Assembly: GCA_044892505.1 (NCBI GenBank)
Contig: CM097882.1
Coordinates: 142,848,001-142,912,000 of the forward strand
Origin: Schmidtea nova
Lineage: Eukaryota
Direction of reading: 5' to 3'
Length of the DNA stretch: 64,000 bases
The notes below the pieces were generated by a model. It was not told the origin of the DNA. It worked only from the letters and a program-made list of their open reading frames with translations, and ran no database searches. Shown here piece after piece: positions 4,501 to 5,683 of the stretch (position 1 is its first letter; every line of letters starts with the position of its first letter). The position numbers and the translations under genes are program-made.

Positions 4501-5121
4501 TTAACTTTGTTTATAAACCATGGCTCCTTCCGGGTTAAAAATATCAGTTCTAACTCGTAAATCATCACTGCATTGTTGAGTAAAATCAAGGAAAATATAT
4601 CCATGAGGAGATTTTGTAGCATCTTGAAAGGCTTCAATCAAAAAGTTACGATTTGAAGGATAAGCTTGTCTTGCCAGAAAATCAATAACTGTTGCATCTC
4701 TAGGATTTTTAAACACAAGATATTGAACATTTAAATTACGAGTTCGATGACTACCGCCCTGATGAAATAAATTCTGAGTTATAAAAATAACAGTAACACC
4801 TTTATGTCTACTGATTTTCGTAAATAAGTTATTGAAATCCTTTTCTTTATTTGCTTCTTGATACAAGTCGTCAATGATAATCACATCACCTTGTTTTAAT
4901 CTAGATGACCAGTTTTTATCGAAACCTTTAATGATTGTCATTTTTATTTTACAAAACTGATCTTGAGTCATTCCACTTTCGTCGTCAGCACCCCTATGCC
5001 AATAAATATTATTAAATTTAGACTTGAATAATTTCGATTGCAATAATTTACAAACAAATAAAGTTTTTCCACTCCCGCTAGGACCAACAATTTGAAACAC
5101 TGCATCATTTCTTAATTCCAT
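4501..5121 (-). CDS. A32/FtsK-like DNA-packaging ATPase, 206 aa
   Basis: Walker A GPSGSGKT, Walker B IIIDDL, then FTKISRH...IFITQNLF...KNPRD...PHGYIFLD...LRVRT. Confidence 0.93.
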   Translation of the reverse strand: MELRNDAVFQIVGPSGSGKTLFVCKLLQSKLFKSKFNNIYWHRGADDESGMTQDQFCKIKMTIIKGFDKNWSSRLKQGDVIIIDDLYQEANKEKDFNNLFTKISRHKGVTVIFITQNLFHQGGSHRTRNLNVQYLVFKNPRDATVIDFLARQAYPSNRNFLIEAFQDATKSPHGYIFLDFTQQCSDDLRVRTDIFNPEGAMVYKQS

Positions 5122-5215
5122 ATTTAAAAATTATATTTTCTTAATATTATTGTTTATATTTGTTTTAAATACTAGTTCTCAAAGTAATTATTTCATTTAA
5201 AAATTATTTTCAGTA

Positions 5216-5683
5216 ATGATTAGAAACATTAATTATAAGGGTAAGACAGATGTATCACACATGAAATTTCCAAAAGGAAAACCCCAGCAAATTGTAGATC
5301 GAAGTGGAAAATACCCAATAATATACTTTAAAACAGGAAGATATAGAATAATGGGATGCAGGGAATTTATTAGTGACGAACAAGTTGAGTTTTACGATTT
5401 AACAATACAATCGATAACTGTAACTGCGGATTTAGGATTTATTTGTAATTTGAATGAATTATCGAAATTGATACCATGTGTTTACGAGCCAGAATTATTT
5501 CCAGCTTTGAGGTATACCAAATATAACCCCATGTGTGTAAATATATTTGCAAGTGGGAAATTAGTCATATTAGGATTAAAAAACAAAGACTATAGTACTA
5601 TAGTTGATGATATTATTTACGATATAAAATCAATTATAGAAGATAAAGCCTTTGTTGATTTCATACTAACATGTGACTCATGA
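5216..5683 (+). CDS. TATA-binding-protein-like protein, 155 aa, carried by the Polinton
   Basis: Second repeat IQSITVTADLG...VYEPELFPALRY...NIFASGKLVILGLK matches TBP YEPELFPGLIY...IFVSGKVVLTGAK. The first repeat is degenerate (IYFKTGRYRIMG). Confidence 0.85.
   Translation: MIRNINYKGKTDVSHMKFPKGKPQQIVDRSGKYPIIYFKTGRYRIMGCREFISDEQVEFYDLTIQSITVTADLGFICNLNELSKLIPCVYEPELFPALRYTKYNPMCVNIFASGKLVILGLKNKDYSTIVDDIIYDIKSIIEDKAFVDFILTCDS

Follow-up and report, generated by a model that had tools for sequence, protein, structure and literature searches.

The question raised by this locus is whether a Polinton of Schmidtea nova encodes a TATA-binding protein (TBP) of its own, and what such a protein would do for the element. 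An earlier note on this DNA had described a 155-aa TBP fold encoded 94 bp from the start of a packaging ATPase on the opposite strand. It proposed either a basal transcription factor dedicated to the element's own late genes or a dominant-negative decoy, and named structure prediction, a phylogeny with host TBP, a search of other copies and dN/dS among them as ways to follow this up. The window referred to below is the whole 64,000-nt stretch that was analysed.

Gene complement of the element

The element spans approximately 17 kb between inverted repeats. Its pPolB lies outside the window, to the left, and was covered by including the left-neighbour sequence. The features in the window are as follows.

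257..1476, − strand: major capsid protein (MCP), two ORF pieces in this copy; the L039 relative folds as a double jelly roll
1835..2878, − strand: penton-like ORF, named from position and conservation
3497..3895, − strand: rve integrase (INT), first ORF piece, by Pfam; relatives are about 348 aa
3951..4337, − strand: pX-like ORF, labelled by position; no Pfam match
4501..5121, − strand: A32/FtsK-type packaging ATPase (Pfam Pox_A32, E 3e-7)
5216..5683, + strand: mini-TBP gene, 155 aa; second repeat full, first repeat modelled as strands without helices H1/H2
7716..8424, no strand: right terminal inverted repeat (98% over 452 nt, 90% over 264 nt); partner arm approximately 7.9-8.6 kb left of the window start

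The MCP of L039 (55-58% identical) was modelled as a double jelly roll like the PBCV-1, iridovirus and virophage capsids, and the protease (PRO) of relatives is a Peptidase_C5 by Pfam. A DNA_pol_B_2 match was obtained for pPolB in three of four relatives; among the pPolB-homologous ORFs left of the window, a 1009-aa piece matched Endonuclease_7 only. INT, MCP, PRO and pPolB are broken into shorter ORFs in this copy than in relatives. The block ATPase-pX-INT-penton-core-MCP-PRO of the earlier note stood for the ATPase and integrase (Pfam) and for PRO and MCP (relatives), and the labels pX, penton and core, which we take from position, found no support in any library searched. Together, pPolB (in relatives), rve integrase, A32-type ATPase, double-jelly-roll MCP and adenain-type protease (in relatives) and terminal inverted repeats are the hallmarks shared with Polintons, Mavericks and adintoviruses. 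No AGTAGT/AGAGAG-type end was found in the vicinity of either repeat arm. Pfam, an insensitive test here, recognised TFIIB or a polymerase in 0/32 ORFs and no herpesvirus-type pre-initiation complex family among the same 32, most of which had no match at all.

A small ORF starting with MG and carrying a CC-type motif lies before the integrase start, or overlaps it, in seven relatives (window 3896-3947, − strand; L032, L037, L039, L041, L047, L065, L076); it usually sits behind its own late box (see below) and resembles a lipid-modified virion peptide. After the protease, often behind a late box, there is a conserved ORF with a FID-E...IKEL pattern (L112:9379-9780, − strand; L039:9591-10055, L065:5870-6355, L081:6495-6959), which had no Pfam match and which we take to resemble a DEDD exonuclease. 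Accessory genes seen in relatives encode a ubiquitin-conjugating enzyme, a dual-specificity phosphatase, an LRR protein, a RING finger, KilA-N, PLA2-like and C2H2 ORFs (L039:222-719, L044:4008-4319, L059:1918-3330, L073:13312-13893, L081:7052-7912). The pPolB region of this copy contains a perfect 198-bp palindrome, located some 5478-5675 nt before the window start (L112).

Elsewhere in the window, an isolated pPolB fragment (10412-10810, − strand) is 62-68% identical to the pPolB of this element and 79-84% to the best other copies, and belongs to a different subfamily that looks older. Two near-identical intronless 207-aa ORFs (25053-25676 and 30224-30847, + strand) resemble, by eye, a UBE2K-type ubiquitin-conjugating enzyme. 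The window also contains two LTR retrotransposons of the Gypsy type and a transposase of the hAT/SPIN type (12934-17288, − strand; 48935-53355, + strand; 22096-23910, − strand).

Predicted fold of mini-TBP

In this copy, mini-TBP starts at 5216 (+) and the ATPase at 5121 (−), which agrees with the 94-bp gap between divergent genes described before. The Pfam TBP family (PF00352) matched the product with E 9.4e-14 and 51.5 bits vs. a curated cut-off of 22.9, over residues 62-133 (the second repeat) only, and all 35 matches of a PDB sequence search were TBPs. An AlphaFold2 model built from a 44-sequence alignment had a pLDDT of 92 and a pTM of 0.82. Foldseek with this model returned 44 matches at E≤0.001, TBPs at the top, and the BFVD structures matching it include viral TBP-like proteins. 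VIA-align placed 141-143 residues on TBP with Z 12.2 and rmsd 2.9-3.0, the next unrelated row having Z 6.0. Pfam, PDB, AlphaFold2, Foldseek and VIA-align are thus in agreement with the 155-aa TBP fold claimed earlier, and the model predicts that the saddle spans the whole chain.

The first-repeat strands of the model lie at residues 2-10, 25-28, 35-38 and 42-48, and the first helix appears only from residue 79, so H1 and H2 seem to be gone. The linker has 17 vs. 32-33 residues in the alignment; model and linker length both indicate that the N-lobe helix H2, with its basic regulator-binding patch, is absent. Relatives form a length series: L106 has 171 aa and both helices, L072-L094 range over 164-171 aa, and members of the short group over 144-160 aa. 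In the basal lineage (L103-L110), TBP is near-canonical with two repeats, and the R and N substitutions are already present.

Copies, selection and phylogeny

The gene is present in at least 150 copies in its own genome; all scored matches were full length at 98-100% identity, four of them with a stop. Subfamilies at 85-95% and a second family at 61-67% have it in the same place. Among 30 copies chosen by their ATPase, the TBP gene was unbroken in 26. Variants counted in 29 ATPase-selected copies (L161 was dropped as an interrupted copy) comprised 23 synonymous and 11 non-synonymous shared changes (pN/pS 0.12), with 0.23 for singletons. Pairwise dN/dS, calculated for non-independent pairs with over 60% identity and dS of 0.1-1.5, had a median of 0.135 for 155 own-genome pairs and 0.167 for 43 metagenome pairs; mini-TBP is thus under purifying selection. 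Two second-family elements are inverted to each other within 30 kb (L219-L221, G000 C1), and similar inverted pairs occur among the own-genome matches.

A word search found 55 related proteins, about 42 of the short type, and a profile search 66 clusters (50% identity) at E≤1e-30. A metagenome scan with TBP gave 80 loci, one of which (L109) was rejected as a false match (GC 63%, unrelated protein). A core Polinton gene was present in 44 of the remaining 79, in 28/34 at ≥3 kb and in 21/23 at ≥4 kb. At the 37 metagenome loci where a marker adjoins the TBP gene, TBP lies upstream on the ATPase strand in 28, after MCP or penton in 7, divergently at 1.7 kb in one and otherwise in one. The head-to-head layout, on which the earlier note had placed weight, is therefore lineage-specific and was rejected as a family trait.

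The tree (79 rows, 169 columns, LG+G4, rooted on one archaeal-type row) was calculated with P0125, P0146, P0154, P0196 and L142 left out, and the Atlas taxa for TBP (1-9 members each) were left out of account. With bootstrap values still unsettled, 34 rows from TBP loci, some of them short contigs without a Polinton gene, fell on one side at 100/96 as a clade separate from host TBP and its paralogues. The nearest rows outside are divergent TBPs without names and the viral-contig TBP L111; because the branches are long, no donor of mini-TBP can be named. The host genome itself has a canonical TBP (L132) and several divergent paralogues. L133 and L135 form an inverted pair about 10 kb apart, about 50% identical to a canonical TBP; L134 and L136 are at 33-43%; L142, L175 and L178 (about 30%) have no Polinton core gene adjoining.

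Residues of the DNA face and the TFIIB surface

Residues were counted in 48 non-redundant relatives, with yeast numbering taken as a constant offset from canonical P0053, which agrees with published numbers. That three of the four intercalating Phe are kept, as had been read by eye, was borne out: F38, F95 and F111 occur in 48/48 relatives, and the first is replaced by Pro (P23) in 46/48. The C-lobe Glu pair, E91 and E93, is kept in all 48, N4 (the N69-equivalent) in 47, the Pro191-equivalent is mostly retained, and the TFIIB stirrup YEPELF is invariant. The DNA face is conserved as strongly as this stirrup, with the new residues N6, Q25, R44, M46, S66, R99 and N109. In the N-lobe, V71 is replaced by N6, V122 by R44 and T124 by M46 (each in 46/48). 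N159 corresponds to S66 in 44/48, I194 to R99 in 48/48, L205 to N109 in 47/48 and V203 to C107 in 37/48.

According to the available part of PMC1636458, the yeast TBP changes I194F, V203T and L205V alter TATA specificity, and the C-lobe reads the 5′ half of the box and the N-lobe the 3′ half. The N-lobe changes, P23 among them, appear to fall where the box YATAAACR (see below) carries an unusual C7, i.e., in the half read by the N-lobe, and the invariant polar changes on the DNA face point to specific DNA reading. As stated in the accessible text of PMC7221094, the two C-lobe Glu are the TFIIB-binding signature of TBP, TFIIA, TAF1, Brf1/2, Mot1 and NC2 act through the H2 patch of the N-lobe, and known viral TBPs have diverged at both. 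Mini-TBP retains the Glu signature, without the H2 patch.

In one sub-lineage, a conserved ORF of 109-116 aa is located just upstream of the TBP gene (L044:1503-1841, L047:1788-2138, L051:2756-3085, L052:665-1015) and is itself preceded by an acidic ORF. It is a possible mini-TBP partner; no family was found for the 116-aa ORF, all Atlas leads being below 0.9.

A putative late box ahead of virion genes

We searched 70 nt before 58 non-redundant ATPase, pX, INT, penton and MCP starts and before 48 TBP starts. The top 6-mer, ATAAAC, preceded 42/58 late-gene starts (shuffles: mean 4.0, maximum 9), 1/58 on the reverse strand, and 3/48 TBP starts. The base in front of it was T in 21, C in 19 and G in 2 of the 42. 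The extended motif YATAAACR is called here the late box, and its occurrences in the window are listed below.

1511..1518, − strand: late box TATAAACA ahead of MCP (9/9 copies)
1936..1943, − strand: late box TATAAACA, before the small ORF that precedes MCP
2915..2922, − strand: variant box GATAAACA ahead of the penton-like ORF (9/9 copies)
3948..3955, − strand: late box CATAAACA ahead of the integrase (8/9 copies)
4036..4043, − strand: late box TATAAACA within the pX-like ORF
4508..4515, − strand: late box TATAAACA in the ATPase 3′ end (9/9 copies)
5151..5158, − strand: late box TATAAACA, its first base 37 nt from the ATG of the ATPase

Window positions 1-5200 thus hold seven late boxes on the late strand and none on the other; over 13 loci, the count of YATAAACR was 103 vs. 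4. The distance from box to start is mostly 32-45 nt. An ORF with its first ATG 30-59 nt on followed 74 of 155 YATAAACR sites (27 loci) vs. 0-12% for six one-base variants, and these starts set in sharply at 32 nt, with 15 lying at 8-29 nt. Box positions were kept in 79/81 cases in nine longer copies, and TATAAAC at 5152-5158 was invariant in 55/55 other copies, with 25/94 intergenic positions invariant overall. Over the whole window, ATAAACA showed no excess (37 vs. 30.6 expected), so the signal is local and strand-specific. The protease gene is often without a late box, none was present upstream of pPolB in the three stretches examined, and downstream of the box no Inr-like motif was prominent.

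A candidate early promoter of the TBP gene

Two elements precede the TBP gene on its own strand.

5164..5171, + strand: TATA-like TTTAAATA, 31 nt before the A of the Inr-like TCATTT; 6/8 positions invariant in 55 copies
5193..5198, + strand: Inr-like TCATTT; A at 5195 invariant in 55/55 copies

TCATTT is named Inr-like on the Inr consensus. TTTAAATA stands back to back with the late box at 5151-5158, 5 bp apart on opposite strands, and is a candidate for the promoter from which the host would transcribe the TBP gene early. Across relatives, a plain TATA was found upstream of 26/48 TBP starts (shuffle 9.5) and TCA(C/T)T or TCATA upstream of 39/48 (shuffle 16.4); where both occur, the spacing was 29-33 nt in 15 of 22 genes, with a peak at 31-32.

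Proposed function and alternative explanations

Fold, clade, selection, residue pattern, box and placement, all of which were observed, lead us to the reading that mini-TBP is a Polinton-encoded, reduced TBP and likely the late-gene promoter factor of the element, with a probability of roughly 65%. Binding, expression, timing and start sites we infer as follows. Host TBP and Pol II would transcribe the mini-TBP gene early from an ordinary TATA + Inr promoter. The re-tooled DNA face of the product would then bind YATAAACR, about 31 nt before the starts of packaging, integrase and capsid transcripts, and the intact C-lobe Glu pair would recruit host TFIIB and Pol II. Loss of H1/H2 would free the protein from TFIIA, TAF1, Mot1/BTAF1 and Brf1, and we propose that because of it mini-TBP neither joins host complexes nor gets evicted. 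If so, it should prefer YATAAACR over TATAAAAG. The dedicated basal factor suggested in the earlier note gains much support from the conserved clade, purifying selection, the kept TFIIB residues and the late box, and its promoter role is probable.

The alternative that survives best, although improbable, is that the box does act as a late promoter, with a reader other than mini-TBP, which would have a different role; that reader could be host TBP or one of its paralogues, a Forkhead factor of the host, another element protein such as the C2H2 finger in L073/L081, or a helper virus. ATAAACA matches the Forkhead consensus, RYAAAYA, divergent TBP paralogues exist in the host genome, and the basal lineage has a TBP without the box. 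In addition, ATPase, MCP and pPolB served as queries in four viral-contig scans for a TBP-less Polinton control, which together yielded a single distant locus; divergent versions of these queries were also run on the element's own genome, and the families examined there all carry the TBP gene, so the dependence of the box on TBP is presumed. Yet a strand-specific box at a fixed distance is unlike an enhancer site, the usual Forkhead core GTAAACA preceded only 1/58 late starts, and the C2H2 ORF was seen in one sub-lineage only. Such a reader would also leave unexplained why TBP has invariant polar substitutions on its DNA face.

A little less probable still is the decoy, in which the protein would titrate host TFIIB (and Brf-type adapters) or occupy host TATA boxes and so dampen host transcription, with host TBP reading the box. 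An invariant YEPELF stirrup combined with the loss of one Phe and of the activator surface would suit it. However, the DNA face matches the stirrup in conservation and has new residues, and a decoy predicts no private box absent from its own promoter; TBP-TFIIB binding, moreover, normally depends on DNA. For these reasons the decoy offered in the earlier note is weaker than the dedicated factor.

We give little credence to the box being an initiator, translation or 3′-end signal (like poxvirus TAAAT, baculovirus TAAG or a poly(A) variant) with only an incidental link to TBP. Many boxes do coincide with the 3′ end of the gene before them, often across its stop codon, and a TATA-like start would leave very short leaders, but boxes are also present without a preceding same-strand gene (5151-5158; L048) and AATAAA is not enriched before late starts (10/58 vs. 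10.3). An ATG occurs within +9..+31 of the box at 25/69 sites, which an initiator would place ahead of the gene, and ORF starts begin at +32.

That the element passively carries a recent or decaying piece of host TBP can practically be dismissed, as can a fragment in this copy only: sequence-level similarity is mostly to one repeat, but identity to the host TBP exon is 26%, and copy number, the second family, dN/dS of about 0.14, the 66 clusters and the separate clade all stand against it.

Several points count against the promoter-factor reading itself, beginning with the TBP-less control, which the scans above did not yield. The TBP of the basal lineage has the R and N changes, and the box was found in 0/19 of its upstream stretches. 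L044 and L051 have the TBP gene and no core gene match in 5 kb of sequence. One Phe is lost, and KSHV ORF24, by the accessible part of PMC12529657, needs all four. The box may be near enough to TATA for host TBP binding; PDB 1qn3, by its title, shows wild-type TBP on a C(-25) TATA variant. With transcription starting at about +31, many genes would have leaders of <10 nt. Finally, a few TBP genes do have the box ahead of them (3/48), and there is often none before the protease.

Comparison with known systems

With cellular TBPs (eukaryotic TBP/TRF, archaeal TBP) mini-TBP shares the two-lobed saddle, three of four Phe, the N69-equivalent and the Glu pair. It differs in being about 25-35 residues shorter, without lobe-1 H1/H2, with Pro for the first Phe and a polar DNA face, and it is 22-26% identical and in a separate clade.

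Beta- and gammaherpesvirus vTBPs (KSHV ORF24, EBV BcRF1, CMV UL87) share a virus-encoded TBP fold, a polar DNA face, a variant TATA box before late genes and host Pol II (PMC12529657, available part); for mini-TBP this pairing of protein and box is proposed. From the same portion of that source, ORF24 reads TATTWAA with a polar face, keeps four Phe that are all needed, and is a large protein of a six-member complex that needs five partners, binds Pol II directly and is without the TFIIB Glu residues. Mini-TBP, at 155 aa, is a TBP core only, with no Pol II-binding N-terminal or extra C-terminal domain and no recognised partners, and keeps the Glu pair. Its box, YATAAACR, differs from the herpesvirus TATTWAA and is a putative promoter. 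By analogy, mini-TBP would work like ORF24 without belonging to that group.

The TBP-like proteins of Nucleocytoviricota and mirusviruses share the viral TBP fold and the loss of N-lobe regulator signatures. In large DNA viruses, as far as the consulted text of PMC7221094 goes, the TFIIB signatures of TBP have diverged and the virus often has its own TFIIB and polymerase, vs. 0/32 ORFs here by the insensitive Pfam test.

In the searchable literature, which excludes subscription journals and Repbase notes, the only trace of TBP in Polintons, adintoviruses or Mavericks was a figure-legend entry 'TBP' for MELD-virus maps in Starrett 2021 (PMC8502044); the accessible text says no more on it. The terms TBP, TATA and promoter do not occur in the available parts of PMC11161782 and PMC10748475, and that of PMC12220804 held nothing relevant. 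The statement that such a module is not normally attributed to Polintons is therefore fair, apart from this label, and a viral TBP with its own late box is apparently undescribed for Polintons in this literature.

Implications

Whether Polintons form virions, and how they would time capsid expression if they have neither a polymerase nor a helper virus, is a standing question, for which TBP and the late box name a candidate switch that is testable with a 155-aa protein and 30-bp oligonucleotides. The stepwise stripping of TBP (171, 165-169 and 144-155 aa) separates TFIIB recruitment from regulator binding, and the residue changes would represent a natural change of TATA specificity at positions known from yeast genetics. 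It is conceivable, at somewhat less than even odds, that a broad Polinton group runs a herpesvirus-like early-to-late cascade on a single protein of 150 residues. This would be the smallest re-programmed TBP known and would read YATAAACR, use host TFIIB and be invisible to Mot1, TFIIA and TAF1. In this lineage, viral TBP on the late box could then shut its own promoter 5 bp away and so flip the switch. Polintons with TBP would be helper-independent viruses with a timed virion programme, and mini-TBP and YATAAACR would be an orthogonal TBP-promoter pair.
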